From a virus (taxonomy: Duplodnaviria > Heunggongvirae > Uroviricota > Caudoviricetes), in IMG/VR virus record IMGVR_UViG_2563366976_000009, positions 1 to 30,850 of that record: a stretch of DNA of 30,850 nucleotides. One strand, written 5' to 3'. Numbering within the stretch: position 1 is the first letter of the stretch; every line of letters begins with the position of its first letter. The translations under genes were made by a program, and so were the position numbers. Below are positions 3,705 through 30,850 of this stretch, one piece after another. The notes under the pieces were generated by a model. That model had not been told where the DNA came from. It did not search any database and saw only the letters and a program-made list of their open reading frames with translations.

Positions 3705-4107
3705 CGCCATAGACGCAATACTCTCACTTCCCATCGACGACAAGTCACCCCACGAAGTCCACGTTAAAGAATCCAAGCGTAGCAAAGCGCAGAATGACCG
3801 TATGTGGCCGATGCTGAACGATGTTTCGCGTCAGGTGCTATGGCATGGTCAACGGCTGGCGCCGGAAGACTGGAAAGACCTGTTCACTGCCCTGTGGCTT
3901 AAGACCAAAAAACTGGAGCAACGAAGTGTGCCTGGTATCGACGGTGGCGTTGTCATGCTTGGCGTGCGTACCAGCAAAATGCGAAAGGCCAGCATGACTG
4001 AGCTTATCGAAATCATGTTTTGGTTCGGCTCAGAGCGCAACGTGCGGTGGAGTGATGACTCCCGGCGAGAGTATGAATGGTCACAACGAACAGGGAGGGA
4101 GGCATGA
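3661..4107 (+). CDS. ninB: NinB recombination protein.
   Basis: MKQTF…DQNRxxW…DVSRQVxWHG…SDD… matches remembered lambda NinB along its length. The ORF-track start at 3559 is an upstream extension. Confidence 0.85.
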
Positions 4108-4286
4108 GGCGACAGCGACGAAGTTTCACCGACATCATCTGCGAAAACTGCAAATACCTTCCAACGAAACGCTCCAGAAATAAACGCAAGCCAATCCCAA
4201 AAGAATCTGACGTAAAAACCTTCAACTACACGGCTCACCTGTGGGATATCCGGTGGCTAAGACATCGTGCGAGGAAAACAAGGTGA
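4104..4286 (+). CDS. ninE: NinE protein.
   Basis: [60 protein letters not shown], near-identical to remembered lambda NinE. ATGA overlap with ninB. Confidence 0.85.
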
Positions 4287-4462
4287 TTGACCAAAATCGA
4301 AGTTACGAACAAGAAAGCGTCGAGCGGGCTTTAACGTGCGCTAATTGCGGTCAGAAGCTGCATGTGCTGGAAGTTCACGTGTGTGAGCGTTGTATATATG
4401 AATGCTTAAATATGGTGGAACATAATGAGAAATATAAGCAACATAGACGAATTAAGAAATAA
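4283..4462 (+). pseudogene. ninF: ninF interrupted by an insertion. The N-terminal 37 codons are NinF-like ([37 protein letters not shown]), then the frame runs into unrelated sequence inside the inserted HNH gene.
   Basis: GTG start overlapping the ninE stop (GTGA). Similarity to lambda NinF stops abruptly after …HVCERC at about 4395. Confidence 0.7.
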
Positions 4463-4931
4463 ATTATCATATGATGATGTTTTAGGTGTACTTAGATGGA
4501 AAGTGTCTCCTTCTAATAATGTTAAGGTTGGCAGTGTTGCTGGTTACATTAGGAGTGATGGTTATAGGATGTTAACTATCGATGGTGTAATTACTTATGC
4601 TCACCACGTTATATGGATGATAAATAATGGTGAGATTCCATTAGGGTATAAAATTGATCATATAAATGGAGTAAGGTCAGATAATAGGCTATCTAATCTT
4701 CGATTGGTTACACACCAACAGAATGCACAGAACCAAAAGAGAAAAATAACCAATTCGTCAGGAGTGACTGGAGTATATTTCAATAAAGAGAGATGCAAGT
4801 GGATTGCGAATATATGCGTAGATGGGCGCACCAAATATCTTGGAATATTTGCTAGCATCATTGACGCTATTGCAGAAAGGAAGAGGGCAGAAAAAGAACT
4901 GGGTTTTCATGAAAACCATGGCAGACCATAA
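4425..4931 (+). CDS. HNH endonuclease with C-terminal AP2-type DNA-binding domain (free-standing homing-endonuclease-like), inserted within ninF.
   Basis: HNH motif …IDHINGVRSDNRLSNLRLVTHQQNAQN; AP2-like segment SGVTGVYFNKERCKWIANICVDGRTKYLGIF. Confidence 0.8.
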   Translation: MRNISNIDELRNKLSYDDVLGVLRWKVSPSNNVKVGSVAGYIRSDGYRMLTIDGVITYAHHVIWMINNGEIPLGYKIDHINGVRSDNRLSNLRLVTHQQNAQNQKRKITNSSGVTGVYFNKERCKWIANICVDGRTKYLGIFASIIDAIAERKRAEKELGFHENHGRP

Positions 4932-4932
4932 C

Positions 4933-4992
4933 TGCGCAGAACTGATGAGCGATCCGAATAGCTCAATGTACGAGGAAGAAGACGATGGCTAA
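4933..4992 (+). other. ninF: Displaced 3' remnant of ninF ([19 protein letters not shown]), in a different frame from the ninF 5' part.
   Basis: Translation matches the remembered lambda NinF C-terminus (…[19 protein letters not shown]). It begins 1 nt after the HNH stop and overlaps the ninG start as in lambda. Confidence 0.6.
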
Positions 4993-5596
4993 ACCAGCGC
5001 GAAGACGATGTAAAAACGATGAATGTCGGGAATGGTTTCACCCTGCATTCGCCAATCAGTGGTGGTGCTCTCCAGAGTGTGGAACCAAGATAGCACTCGA
5101 ACGACGAAGTAAAGAACGCGAAAAAGCGGAAAAGGCAGCAGAGAAGAAACGACGACGAGAGGAGCAGAAACAGAAAGATAAACTTAAGATTCGAAAACTC
5201 GCCTTAAAGCCCCGCAGTTACTGGATTAAACAAGCCCAACAAGCCGTAAACGCCTTCATCAGAGAAAGAGACCACGACTTACCATGTATCTCGTGCGGAA
5301 CGCTCACGTCTGCTCAGTGGGATGCCGGACATTACCGGACAACTTCTGCGGCACCTCAACTCCGATTTGATGAACGCAATATTCACAAGCAATGCGTGGT
5401 GTGCAACCAGCATAAAAGCGGAAATCTCGTTCCGTATCGCGTCGAACTGATTAACCGCATCGGGCAGGAAGCAGTAGACGAAATCGAATTAAACCATAAC
5501 CGCCATCGCTGGACTGTCGAAGAGTGCAGGGCCATCAAGGCGGAGTATCAGCAGAAACTTAAAAATCTGCGAAACAGCAGAAGTGAGGCAGCATGA
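4985..5596 (+). CDS. ninG: NinG (Rap) recombination protein.
   Basis: 203 aa, Cys-rich N-terminus and lysine-rich coil; size and position match lambda NinG. Confidence 0.8.
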
Positions 5597-6264
5597 ATAT
5601 CTACGAAAGAATTGATGGCAGCAAATACCGAAATATTTGGGTAGCTGGCGACCTGCACGGATGCTACACGAACCTGATGAACAAACTGGATACGATTGGA
5701 TTCGACACCAAAAAAGACCTGCTTATCTCGGTTGGCGATTTGGTTGATCGTGGTGCAGAGAACGTTGAATGCCTGGAATTAATCACATTCCCCTGGTTCA
5801 GAGCTGTACGTGGAAACCATGAGCACATGATGATTGATGGCTTATCAGAGCGTGGAAACGTCAATCACTGGCTGCTTAATGGCGGTGGCTGGTTCTTTAA
5901 TCTCGATTACGACAAAGAAATTCTGGCTAAAGCTCTTGCCCATAAAGCAGATGAACTTCCGTTAATCATCGAACTGGTGAGCAAAGATAAAAAATATGTC
6001 ATCTGCCACGCCGATTATCCTTGTGACGAATACGAGTTTGGAAAGCCAGTTGATCATCAGCAGGTAATCTGGAACCGCGAACGAATCAGCAACTCACAAG
6101 ACGGGATCGTGAAAGAAATCAAAGGCGCGGACATGTTCATCTTTGGTCATACGCCAGCAGTGAAACCGCTCAAATTTGCCAACCAGATGTATATCGATAC
6201 CGGCGCAGTGTTCTGCGGAAATCTCACATTGATTCAGGTACAGGGAGAAGGCGCGTGGGCATAA
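5593..6264 (+). CDS. Ser/Thr protein phosphatase (lambda orf221 / NinI-type).
   Basis: GDLHG, GDLVDRG, GNHE calcineurin-like metallophosphatase motifs; near-identical to remembered lambda phosphatase. Confidence 0.9.
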
Positions 6265-6967: not shown

Positions 6968-7480
6968 ATGAAAGAAATAAAATTAACGCCAGAAATGGTG
7001 CTTTCTGTTGTTGATTACAATCCATCATCAGGCGACTTTCACTGGAGATGGAGGCAGGGGAGAGAGAGGACCACTTTGACATGGAACTCTCGTTTTGCTT
7101 TCAAGAAATGCTCATCAATAAATTCTGATGGGTATTTAATGATTATGATTAATGGTAAAGCATGCCCTGCTCACAGACTGGCATGGTTGATTGTTTATGG
7201 CACCATGCCCGATGGTTTTATTGATCACATCAACAGGGTAAGAACAGATAACCGGATATCAAATCTTCGTCTTGTCACTCATTCCGAAAATATGCAAAAC
7301 AGGAAAATTCAGAAGAATAATAAATCTGGATACCGTGGCGTGTCTTGGGATGCTAAGTACGGGAAATGGAGAGCAAGAATTAATGCGTCTGGAAAGTGTA
7401 TTAACCTTGGATACCATGACACTGCCGAACTTGCCGCTGCGGCTTTTGAGGCAGCCAGAATGAAATATCATACCGTTTAA
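6968..7480 (+). CDS. Second HNH endonuclease with AP2-type domain, paralogous to the one in ninF.
   Basis: …IDHINRVRTDNRISNLRLVTHSENMQN… and YRGVSWDAKYGKWRARINASGKCINLGY; RBS AAGG before the ATG. Confidence 0.8.
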   Translation: MKEIKLTPEMVLSVVDYNPSSGDFHWRWRQGRERTTLTWNSRFAFKKCSSINSDGYLMIMINGKACPAHRLAWLIVYGTMPDGFIDHINRVRTDNRISNLRLVTHSENMQNRKIQKNNKSGYRGVSWDAKYGKWRARINASGKCINLGYHDTAELAAAAFEAARMKYHTV

Positions 7481-25559: not shown

Positions 25560-26096
25560 TCAAACAACCCACCAGTTTGCCTGATTGGATACCAGCCTTG
25601 CAGTTTTTATGGAATTAATTATGCCATGCTCAAGAGCCTTGTTAGCATCCAAAATGGTCGAGTCTGCTATCAGGGATGCCCACCTAATATGGGTTCCGAT
25701 GTCGATATTGAACGTCTCAACGAAGCGATCAAGATCGTTATCGAGGCATTTCCCGTACTCTCTCAATCTGGCATGGTCGGCGGCTGGGGAGGCAAAGCAC
25801 CATAATAGAGGATGTAACAGGAATCTTGATAATGGGTTTGCGAAACGTTCTGAGCCAGCCAGGAAAACGATATTAGCTATGGATTCAACATTGCTTATGT
25901 TGTGAGTTCTAACGGTAACAGGGAGTGACTTAAGAAAGTTATACGCAGTAAAGCCAGCGGCAGTTTCCCCTCCCTGACTTGATATATGGATATTTAATTC
26001 AGTTGCGCCTTGAGATAATGCGGTGAGACAGTGGTTCTGAAGTTGCCCAACAGTGGCAGTGTTAACGGGGCATAAGAAATGAATTGTGTGCAGCAT
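25560..26096 (-). CDS. ClpP-fold (Clp protease-like) serine protease, 178 aa, translationally coupled to mnt.
   Basis: …IHISSQGGETAAGFTAYNFLKSLPVTVRTHNISNVESIANIVFLAGSERFANPLSRFLLHPL… aligns with the ClpP core (INSPGG…TAG…GQAASMG…LPNSRxMIHQP). The Ser and His positions appear conserved. Its ATG overlaps the mnt stop (TAATG). Confidence 0.6.
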   Translation of the reverse strand: MLHTIHFLCPVNTATVGQLQNHCLTALSQGATELNIHISSQGGETAAGFTAYNFLKSLPVTVRTHNISNVESIANIVFLAGSERFANPLSRFLLHPLLWCFASPAADHARLREYGKCLDNDLDRFVETFNIDIGTHIRWASLIADSTILDANKALEHGIINSIKTARLVSNQANWWVV

Positions 26097-27904: not shown

Positions 27905-30850
27905 ATGAGAGACATTACAGCCAATGTGATCGTATCGATGCCTTCGCAACTCTTCACTATGGCGCGTTCTTTTAAAGCCGTAGCCAATGGCAAAATTTAT
28001 ATCGGTAAAATTGACACTGACCCTGTAAATCCTGAAAACCAGATTCAGGTTTATGTGGAAAACGAAGACGGCTCTCACGTTCCTGTTTCGCAACCAATCA
28101 TCATTAACGCTGCTGGATATCCTGTATATAACGGACAGATTGCCAAATTCGTAACTGTGCAAGGCCATTCTATGGCTGTTTATGATGCGTATGGTGCGCA
28201 GCAGTTCTATTTTCCGAATGTGCTGAAGTATGATCCTGATCAGTTACGGCGGCAATTAGAAGACCCAGATGGAGCGAATAAATACCCAAAACTTCAGATA
28301 GCAAGATGGAGAGACAGTTATGATGTAAGAGGTTGGGGGGCTATTGGTGATGGTGTTCATGATGATACATCAGCTCTATCAGAATTACTTTCTGTTGCAA
28401 CAGGTGGTGAAAAGATAGATGGGCGAGGGCTTACTTTTAAAGTATCAAATCTTCCGGATGTCAGTCGATTTAAAAATGCTCGTTTTTTATTTGAGAGAAT
28501 ACCGGGTCAGCCTCTTTTTTATGCTTCTGAAGATTTTATCCAGGGAGAGTTATTTAAAATTACAGATACACCGTGGTACAACGCCTGGACGCAGGATAAA
28601 ACGTTTGTATATGACAATGTCATCTATGCGCCTTTTATGGCTGGAGACCGCCATGGTGTAAATAACCTCCATGTTGCATGGGTTCGCTCAGGAGATGACG
28701 GGAAGACCTGGACAACGCCGGAATGGCTTACAGATTTACATGAAAACTATCCCACAGTTAACTATCACTGCATGAGTATGGGGGTTGTCAGAAATCGCCT
28801 TTTTGCTGTAATTGAGACGCGGACCGTGAGAGGAAATAAACTGCAGGTTGCAGAGTTGTGGGATCGCCCAATGAGTCGCAGCCTTCGCGTTTATGGTGGT
28901 ATAACGAAAGCAGCAAATCAGCAAGTCGCTTATATTCGCATTACTGATCACGGATTATTTGCTGGTGATTTTGTCAACTTCTCAAACTCTGGTGTTACAG
29001 GTGTTACCGGGAATATGACGGTGACTACTGTTATTGATAAAAATACTTTTACAGTTACGACGCAAAATACCCAGGATGTGGATCAGAATAACGAGGGTAG
29101 ATACTGGAGTTTTGGTACATCATTTCACTCGTCACCATGGAGAAAAACCAGTCTTGGAACTATTCCTTCTTTTGTTGACGGAAGCACTCCTGTTACTGAG
29201 ATTCACAGTTTTGCGACGATTAGCGATAACAGTTTTGCTGTTGGCTACCATAATGGTGATATTGGTCCACGCGAGCTTGGGATACTCTATTTCTCTGATG
29301 CTTTCGGTTCTCCTGGTAGCTTTGTTCGCAGACGCATACCTGCAGAATATGAGGCGAATGCATCTGAGCCATGTGTAAAATATTATGATGGCATTCTGTA
29401 TCTGACGACCAGGGGGACATTAAGTACTCAACCCGGTAGTTCATTGCACAGAAGCTCTGATTTAGGTACATCATGGAATTCTCTTCGCTTCCCAAATAAT
29501 GTTCATCACTCAAACCTTCCTTTTGCCAAAGTTGGCGATGAGCTGATTATTTTTGGCAGTGAGCGCGCATTTGGTGAGTGGGAAGGAGGAGAACCTGATA
29601 ACCGTTATGCAGGAAATTATCCAAGAACATTTATGACCAGAGTTAACGTCAATGAGTGGAGTCTGGATAATGTAGAGTGGGTTAATGTTACTGATCAGAT
29701 TTATCAGGGCGGAATAGTTAACTCTGCGGTTGGTGTTGGTTCAGTTTGTATCAAAGACAACTGGCTGTACTACATTTTCGGTGGGGAAGACTTTCTAAAC
29801 CCATGGAGCATAGGGGATAACAACAGAAAATATCCTTATGTTCACGATGGTCACCCGGCTGATTTATATTGTTTCAGGGTGAAAATCAAACAGGAAGAAT
29901 TTGTTTCAAGGGATTTTGTCTACGGAGCCACTCCTAACAGAACGCTTCCTACTTTGATGTCGACGTCAGGCGTGAGGACGGTTCCTGTACCCGTTGATTT
30001 CACAGATGATGTTGCCGTCCAGTCACTGACTGTCCATGCAGGTACATCAGGACAAGTTCGCGCGGAAGTCAAACTTGAGGGTAATTACGCCATTATTGCG
30101 AAGAAAGTACCGTCTGATGATGTTACCGCTCAGAGATTAATCGTTAGCGGCGGTGAAACAACGTCTTCAGCAGATGGTGCAATGATAACGTTGCATGGTT
30201 CCAGAAGCAGTACTCCACGTCGCGCGGTATATAACGCACTCGAACATCTTTTTGAGAACGGAGATGTTAAACCTTATCTTGATAATGTAAATGCTCTTGG
30301 TGGTCCGGGAAACAGGTTCTCGACAGTTTATCTTGGCTCCAATCCTGTGGTTACCAGTGACGGAACATTAAAGACAGAGCCGGTCTCTCCTGACGAAGCA
30401 TTGCTGGATGCCTGGGGTGACGTCAGGTATATCGCTTATAAATGGCTGAACGCTGTCGCTATAAAGGGGGAAGAAGGGGCGAGGATACATCATGGTGTAA
30501 TCGCGCAGCAACTTCGTGATGTTCTTATTTCTCACGGACTCATGGAAGAAGAAAGCACAACATGCCGCTATGCCTTTCTTTGCTATGACGATTATCCCGC
30601 AGTATATGATGACGTCATTACTGGCCAAAGGGAAATGCCGCTGACTGATAATGACGGGAGCATCATTGTTGATGAGGATGATAATCCAGTGATGGTAATG
30701 GAAGACATCATTGAGCGCGTTGAAATAACGCCAGCAGGATCTAGATGGGGGGTCAGACCTGATCTCTTATTCTATATCGAGGCGGCATGGCAGCGCAGAG
30801 AAATGGATAAGATAAAAGCTAGGTTAGACTTAATAGAAGGGAAGCACTAA
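27905..30850 (+). CDS. Tailspike: N-terminal P22-type head-binding domain fused to an endosialidase (endo-N-acetylneuraminidase) with a C-terminal intramolecular chaperone domain.
   Basis: N-terminus [11 protein letters not shown]…[38 protein letters not shown]…[15 protein letters not shown]…NVLKYDPDQ matches remembered P22 gp9 residues 1-110. GDGVHDDT motif, two Asp-boxes (SGDDGKTW near 28687-28710; SSDLGTSW near 29450-29475), and a C-terminal …[12 protein letters not shown]…[15 protein letters not shown]…WGVRPDLLF…AAWQRR… chaperone domain, as in K1-phage endosialidases. Stop codon at the last 3 nt of the window. Confidence 0.85.

Follow-up and report, generated by a model that had tools for sequence, protein, structure and literature searches.

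A putative free-standing homing endonuclease gene inserted within ninF of lambdoid prophages

Introduction

To our knowledge, nearly all that is understood of the biology of phage homing endonucleases comes from lytic phages, T4-like ones and those of Bacillus. The known systems include free-standing endonuclease genes that split phage genes, such as mobE in nrdA of phage Aeh1, mobA in gene 60/39 of T4 and a seg gene in gene 43 of phage 25 (PMC2988022). Here, we analyze a locus of this kind in a temperate phage, found on a 30,850-nucleotide stretch of viral DNA (IMG/VR record IMGVR_UViG_2563366976_000009, positions 1 to 30,850; the whole stretch is hereafter called the window). A 539-bp cassette encoding an HNH enzyme lies between codons 37 and 38 of ninF, a non-essential lambdoid gene, and the cassette is probably a free-standing homing endonuclease gene. 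We describe its precise insertion, the family and fold of its protein, its pattern of occurrence in the population, and the purifying selection on it.

The closest parallels are mobE in nrdA of Aeromonas phage Aeh1 and mobA between genes 60 and 39 of T4. As in those cases, the ninF insert is a promoter-less, free-standing HNH cassette within coding sequence and belongs to neither an intron nor an intein. It breaks the host gene into two open reading frames (ORFs), the start of the endonuclease gene overlaps or adjoins the upstream fragment, and the cassette would be expressed within the host operon. The ninF case differs from mobE and mobA in that it resides in a temperate lambdoid (P22-like) prophage rather than a lytic T4-like phage, and in that the split gene is short (56 codons) and non-essential, whereas mobE and mobA interrupt essential enzymes whose pieces must reassemble. 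Moreover, the 3′ piece of ninF lacks an evident translation start of its own, and the DNA-binding module of the enzyme, whose activity is predicted, has an AP2 fold. The gene ninF is dispensable in lambda (PMC10695390), and its product is without known function (PMC3224144). As ninF is non-essential, its splitting is tolerated and the disruption should cost little. In the searchable library of papers, none was found that connects ninF to an HNH insertion.

Results

Positions 3900–5700 of the window make up a lambda-like nin region, in which Pfam models identify NinB, NinE, NinF, NinG, a NinI-type phosphatase and Q (Table 1). According to the original prediction, made from the letters of the window, ninF matches lambda NinF and then diverges, a complete HNH-AP2 ORF follows, and the C-terminus of NinF resumes one nucleotide after the HNH stop, in a different frame and overlapping ninG. 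This layout was borne out. The gene begins with GTG (4283) and encodes residues 1–37 of lambda NinF with a single change, H36R, codon 37 (TGT, 4391–4393) being the last that matches. This 5′ part scores E = 6e-12 with Pfam NinF and covers positions 3–44 of the 58 of phrog_672. Foreign sequence then follows, with the HNH ORF intact over 168 codons, after which ninF continues with TGC GCA GAA. The remnant corresponds to lambda NinF residues 38–56 except for Y49, a His in lambda; Tyr is also present in uninterrupted Escherichia coli alleles such as that of locus L005. Because the remnant is nearly identical to genuine ninF 3′ ends, a chance match is excluded.

Table 1. Features of the interrupted ninF locus, in window coordinates
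Feature	Position	Strand	Description
ninE	4104..4286	+	Upstream neighbour of ninF; Pfam NinE, E = 7.6e-43; stop overlaps ninF start (GTGA); start ATG 4104 placed from lambda NinE and from the Pfam match, which covers residues 10–67 of the ORF from 4077
ninF 5′ part, codons 1–37	4283..4393	+	Lambda NinF residues 1–37, one change (H36R)
Junction-proximal variants CGT TGT	4388..4393	+	CAC TGC in intact alleles; G4389 and T4390 only in occupied alleles
Inserted cassette, 539 bp	4394..4932 (equivalently 4393–4931)	+	Exact indel relative to lambda and 123 intact alleles
Foreign 22-codon tail and stop on truncated NinF	4394..4462	+	IYECLNMVEHNEKYKQHRRIKK, then stop (4460–4462); overlaps HNH start
Shine-Dalgarno-like GGTGGA	4414..4419	+	5 nt 5′ of HNH ATG; read from the sequence; putative function
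HNH-AP2 endonuclease ORF, 168 aa	4425..4931	+	HNH core ~58–103; AP2-fold domain ~112–160
ninF 3′ remnant, codons 38–56 and stop	4933..4992	+	TGC GCA GAA...; frame differs from that of the 5′ part
ninG (rap)	4985..5596	+	Pfam NinG, 5.3e-90; start (ATG 4985) overlaps the ninF stop, as in lambda

To define the insertion, the locus was aligned with uninterrupted genes. A 901-nt query matched lambda in two blocks (97.8% identity) that are contiguous there over 362 nt, which makes the insert an exact 539-bp indel, and in lambda and hundreds of other phages the ninF flanks likewise form two adjoining blocks (95–99% match). Against 123 uninterrupted alleles (120 from IMG/VR, plus those of lambda and two E. 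coli prophages), the cassette is a clean presence/absence polymorphism between codons 37 and 38. The junctions lie at 4393/4394 and 4932/4933. Placement one nucleotide to the left (4392/4393 and 4931/4932) is equally valid, because the T/C wobble base of Cys37 is ambiguous. Thus, the 3′ junction is the one first predicted (4932/4933), while the 5′ junction, initially put at about 4396, moves by 3 nt. The insert length, 539, is not divisible by 3, which puts the remnant in a different frame from the 5′ part.

The insertion falls directly after the second CxxC of a CxxC-11-CxxC motif, all four cysteines of which (C19, C22, C34 and C37) are retained in the 5′ part. Truncation exchanges the acidic tail of NinF for a basic one, and in strain Z1323CEC0006 a G4418T variant cuts this foreign tail to 8 residues. 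The 3′ remnant carries the start codon of ninG and its Shine-Dalgarno-like motif. It may be because it holds the translation start region of the next gene that the remnant has been kept. A weak terminator-like hairpin (4373–4388) is part of ninF itself and not of the cassette.

The protein encoded by the cassette belongs to a family of phage HNH (beta-beta-alpha-metal) enzymes. It scores 70.1 bits with Pfam HNH_3 (PF13392; gathering score 24.8, E = 1.2e-19, residues 58–102) and matches PHROG 99 (phrog_99, "HNH endonuclease") with E = 3.4e-70. In its catalytic motif, IDH(79)INGVRSDN(87)RLSN(91)LRLVTHQQN(100)AQN(103), residues D78, N91 and N103 are invariant across 38 homologues, and H79, N87 and N100 nearly so. 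The D-H...N...N pattern aligns with that of I-HmuI, the only informative sequence match in the PDB. An AlphaFold2 model built on the alignment of the 38 homologues (pLDDT 88.6) also has I-HmuI as its top PDB match in Foldseek (1u3e; E = 8.9e-4, probability 1.00, 165 aligned columns). I-HmuI, a nicking HNH homing endonuclease of Bacillus phage SPO1 (PDB 1U3E), is similar in length (174 versus 168 aa). The likeness has limits, as the two share only ~23% sequence identity and superimpose poorly overall (TM 0.45). Unlike the ninF enzyme, I-HmuI sits in a group I intron, has a C-terminal DNA-binding part without the AP2 fold, and acts on an unrelated target.

The C-terminal part of the model comprises three strands (117–120, 125–132 and 135–142) and a helix (145–159). 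Foldseek matches residues ~112–160 to the AP2 domains of TEM1, AtERF1 and WRI1 (probability 0.99–1.00), with rmsd values of 1.6–1.9 Å over 49–50 residues for TEM1 and AtERF1. By sequence score, the 168-aa protein falls below the Pfam AP2 threshold (15–17 bits versus a gathering score of 33.3), which several homologues and a second HNH ORF of the window pass. The AP2 part of the predicted label therefore stands with a qualification: "HNH-AP2" is right by family and by the modeled fold, not by the Pfam criterion for this protein.

In family and length, the protein resembles the HNH_3/AP2 endonucleases of phrog_99, including those of Klebsiella siphophages KpS2 and MezzoGao and an HNH gene between Q and holin in HK629. 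Its nearest relatives in GenBank phages, mostly HNH endonucleases of Klebsiella siphophages, are 46–52% identical over ~95% of the length, and none in that set exceeds 52%. Among 5.8 billion proteins, the only close relatives are copies of the same ninF insert and one protein at 85% identity.

We next consider what type of element the cassette is. It consists of a 31-nt leader, the 507-nt HNH-AP2 ORF and one trailing base (C4932), and its GC content is 35%, compared to 0.49–0.51 in the 500 nt on each side. The ORF has its own Shine-Dalgarno-like motif, ATG (4425) and TAA (4929–4931). A consensus scan for a promoter or terminator belonging to the cassette gave none above chance, and no NCBIfam model matches the ninF 5′ part, the HNH ORF or the 3′ remnant. 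Many HNH homing endonucleases, I-HmuI included, are encoded in introns, and this general fact would favor a self-splicing element (a group I or group II intron, or an intein) or a transposon, with ninF not truly split at the RNA or protein level. For this locus we regard such an explanation as highly improbable. With 32 non-coding nt among its 539, the cassette is too compact to hold a ribozyme, and a permissive Rfam scan (E ≤ 1) of positions 4000–5300 matched no family; hence, an intron was rejected. An intein was rejected on the grounds that 539 is not divisible by 3 and that the ORF starts and stops independently, in another frame. As for a transposon, insertion sequence or miniature inverted-repeat transposable element, the cassette contains no terminal inverted repeats, target-site duplication or transposase, the HNH enzyme being its only ORF. 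Its AT-richness, own translation signals, HNH nuclease with AP2 fold, and lack of ribozyme, intein or transposon features support the interpretation of the original prediction, that of a free-standing homing endonuclease gene, as far as sequence and modeled fold can indicate.

We also considered whether an RNA hairpin controls the HNH start, as for mobE or I-TevI. Nucleotides 4389–4442 fold into a modest hairpin (z = –2.4), formed by pairing of the cassette-linked bases GUUGU with a GCAAC in the HNH ORF, so that the HNH start region lies within it. This candidate was dropped, as the Shine-Dalgarno-like motif lies mostly in the loop and the structure is absent (z = +1.1) in a diverged copy of the cassette, L004, described below.

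Comparison of natural alleles shows how uniform the insertion site is. All 123 uninterrupted alleles read GAG-NNN-TGY/TGY-GCA (the slash marks the junction), with CAC as codon 36 in 119, TAC in 3 and CTC in 1. By contrast, the occupied alleles (30/30 from IMG/VR and RefSeq, plus four further copies from a metagenome junction scan) read GAG CGT TGT/ATATATG...CCATAAC/TGC GCA, with the same junctions throughout. An intact allele with CGT at codon 36 would be a candidate founder. None was found among the 123 intact alleles (0/123) or the top E. coli matches to the reconstructed empty site, the best uninterrupted one of which is 98.5% identical and has CAC.

The insert is present in 45 of 5,426 complete E. 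coli genomes (47 places, 98–99.8% identity), in all cases over annotated NinF fragments; one strain, FXCREC035 (NZ_CM135826.1), has two places with the cassette. Homology to ninF was found on both sides of the insert in 45/45 of these genomes and in every complete copy among 34 IMG/VR, metagenome and RefSeq loci, as the split-gene reading requires. In a public assembly collection, the exact 168-aa protein is indexed in 3,440 blocks, and NinF lies immediately upstream in 10/10 of the places shown (26 contigs read). The element already sits, unremarked, in thousands of public assemblies. Two-piece matches of 468 bp, which could have been a second kind of insert inside ninF, proved to reflect an extra gene between ninF and ninG.

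To ask how the cassette is linked to its surroundings, we compared 23 distinct occupied haplotypes (from 29 occupied loci) with 103 distinct empty ones, from 130 nt left of the site to 80 nt right of it. Only three positions are linked to the cassette: –5 (G) and –4 (T), seen in 23/23 occupied and 0/103 intact haplotypes, and –1 (T), seen in 23/23 and 4/103, respectively. Polymorphisms at –49, –67, –76/–80, +33 and +37 are present in both classes. Both N-terminal modules of ninF, the lambda type (VIDQNRSY...) and the P22 type (MLSPSQSLQY...), are found with and without the cassette, and the gene next to ninF on its 3′ side in occupied loci is one of at least six, including NinG, a KilAC/Ant antirepressor, and a 70-aa ORF followed by YbcO. 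No fewer than six unrelated genes downstream share precisely one start position, the ATG that overlaps the ninF stop. In both classes, pairwise difference is 0.003–0.03 between –60 and +30 and reaches ~0.6 (unrelated modules) beyond the gene. The insertion target lies within the most conserved ~90 nt of this mosaic region. A near-invariant cassette, together with a few adjacent bases, sits in many otherwise different ninF/nin backgrounds.

The linkage block extends only from –5 to –1, and exchange is evident within 33–49 nt on both sides, in many backgrounds. So small a block would fit repair with short co-conversion tracts, as expected of homing, although general lambdoid recombination could look alike. 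Where the ninF stop meets the start of the following gene (ATGnnTRA; 4985–4992 in the window, and loci L003, L008–L033 and L157–L170), the two form a fixed mosaic joint.

Evidence on selection comes from the copies themselves and from one older relative. Cassette copies differ by at most 5 of 539 nt, and the 168-codon ORF is intact in 33/34 complete copies; within this clade, 14 changes are synonymous and 8 non-synonymous. The older copy, L004, is a 909-bp Logan contig with 85% identity at the protein level and 81% at the DNA level. Its cassette directly follows ...ATT CAT GTT TGT GAG AAA TGT/ATATATG, at the same codon position of a diverged ninF (IHVCEKC), and a YbcO gene then follows. Its 3′ junction (560–600 of the contig) lacks 27 nt, including the HNH stop codon and the first six remnant codons (CAELMS), and the HNH ORF consequently runs 8–9 codons into a diverged, out-of-frame ninF tail (DPNGQMLEKDDG, then a stop). 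The fused ORF is 176 aa as called, with a start 5 codons upstream. Between L004 and the main copy, dS is ~1.24 and dN/dS is 0.07, which shows strong purifying selection on the enzyme while it has stayed at the ninF site.

The main rival to a homing endonuclease gene is passive spread of a single old insertion: an HNH gene would have entered ninF once, by an illegitimate insertion, and spread only by ordinary homologous (Red/Rec-mediated) recombination, with a nuclease that no longer targets ninF or never did. Several observations weigh on its side and against homing. First, the cassette is infrequent, occupying 47 of ~2,900 ninF-homologous places in complete E. coli genomes (~1.6%), fewer than an efficient drive would lead one to expect. 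None of 50,697 GenBank phage records contains it, nor, in protein and junction-pattern searches, does any of 185,579 GTDB species representatives. Some genomes with the cassette also have several ninF-homologous places that lack it: strain Z1323CEC0006 (NZ_CP148466.1), for example, has one occupied place among 6 that are ninF-homologous, leaving up to five without the cassette, as judged by homology only. Second, the boundaries of ninF are mosaic joints in cassette-free phages too, with flank diversity equal to that of occupied loci; therefore, ordinary lambdoid recombination could have spread one ancestral insertion. Third, the three junction-proximal variants common to all copies are consistent with a single origin, and the linked changes at –5 and –4 could be hitch-hikers from the founding allele. 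Nonetheless, a functionless passenger should decay, and a dN/dS of 0.07 at a dS of ~1.2, with 33/34 ORFs intact, is hard to reconcile with this. Exchange so close to the site on both sides of a nearly constant cassette is also easier to understand if breaks are made at the site, and the protein family is made up entirely of homing-type HNH enzymes from phages. On balance, we regard passive spread as unlikely.

Purifying selection and intactness would equally be expected of a domesticated nuclease that aids its phage, whether by marker exclusion against competitors with intact ninF or by DNA processing or regulation, its position in ninF being accidental. An AP2-fold DNA-binding domain could serve regulation. 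Competition between intron-encoded HNH enzymes, to the benefit of flanking markers, is cited in PMC2988022 (its reference 43), and a ninF-like target is present in about a third of complete E. coli genomes. However, marker exclusion uses the same cleavage as homing and is hardly a separate mechanism, and in a P22-like headful-packaging phage the distance of the gene from terminase makes a packaging role of the HK97 gp74 type unlikely. We consider a domesticated nuclease of this kind quite improbable.

The locus is annotated inconsistently. RefSeq annotates occupied loci as "protein NinF" (x2) plus an HNH gene, and the in-frame ATG that gene callers use for the second "NinF" (4822) lies inside the HNH ORF. 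At two loci (L002, 3226–3471, of strain Z1323CEC0006; L003, 3370–3519, of E2348/69), PGAP marks the HNH gene as "incomplete/pseudogene" and places within it the start of a 50-aa "protein NinF". Translation of the two loci yields an intact 168-codon ORF in each, and the protein is the one found in the window. The pseudogene flag appears to be an artefact of annotation, due to the NinF match that overlaps the gene.

Other HNH genes are found in the neighborhood. The second HNH_3 and AP2 ORF of the window (6968–7480, +; 170 aa; AP2 35.1 bits, above threshold) is 49% identical to the ninF HNH enzyme over the core. It lies between the Q antiterminator gene, with a terminator-like hairpin, and holin; the same gene is found there in HK629, and many relatives have tRNA-Asn and tRNA-Thr in its place. 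Unlike the ninF cassette, this paralogue and its HK629 counterpart lie between genes. In related prophages, HNH_3 genes are also present at nin gene boundaries (L166, 3553–4077; L167, 1581–2183 and 3553–4077; L168, 1268–1753): between YbcO and RusA, as NUMOD4+HNH_3 between NinB and NinE, and as HNH_3+AP2 upstream of NinB. It seems that HNH genes commonly settle in the nin region.

Elsewhere, the window has the features of a P22-like prophage, with gp3, terminase, injectosome protein and P22 antirepressor. Its tailspike (27905–30850, +) has a P22 head-binding domain joined to endosialidase domains (End_beta_propel, E = 5e-233), and we take the phage to be CUS-3-like and specific for the K1 capsule. 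A ClpP-like protease ORF (25560–26096, –; CLP_protease, E = 2.2e-11) lies near the P22-type antirepressor gene.

Discussion

By analogy with other members of its family, the ninF enzyme would be expected to cleave a specific site, to home, to bias its own inheritance, to leave the occupied allele immune and to be expressed in the course of infection. A homing cycle may be envisaged as follows. The promoter-less cassette would be transcribed with the delayed-early nin operon during phage replication. The AP2-fold domain of its product would bind the conserved centre of an uninterrupted ninF in a co-replicating lambdoid phage, and the HNH domain would nick or cut near GAG CAC TGC/TGC GCA. Recombinational repair from the occupied allele would then copy the cassette, plus a few flanking bases, into the recipient. 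Splitting of its site would make the occupied allele immune, and the linked CAC>CGT and TGC>TGT changes may add to this immunity. The insertion would also cost ninG its translational coupling to ninF.

A bolder version holds that the cassette is a currently active gene drive among temperate lambdoid phages, and also an inter-prophage weapon, with the junction changes acting as immunity determinants and the truncated zinc-ribbon NinF still functional. We regard this version as doubtful. If true, any co-replication of a cassette-bearing phage with another lambdoid phage, or with an induced prophage, would let the cassette cut and convert the nin operon of the rival.

Our findings introduce no new mechanism, and the locus is a clean, fairly ordinary case of a known type of mobile element. 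One practical point is that genome pipelines annotate it as two "NinF" genes plus an HNH gene often flagged as a pseudogene. For phage biology, it would provide a compact, naturally polymorphic case of homing in the genetically tractable lambda/P22 family. The system would be a useful one: the cassette is defined to the base, its target is a short, highly conserved stretch of a dispensable gene, and natural alleles, empty and occupied, number in the hundreds, one of them in the well-studied enteropathogenic E. coli strain E2348/69. Lambda genetics could be used to measure homing and co-conversion tracts, as well as the share that endonuclease breaks have in lambdoid mosaicism.

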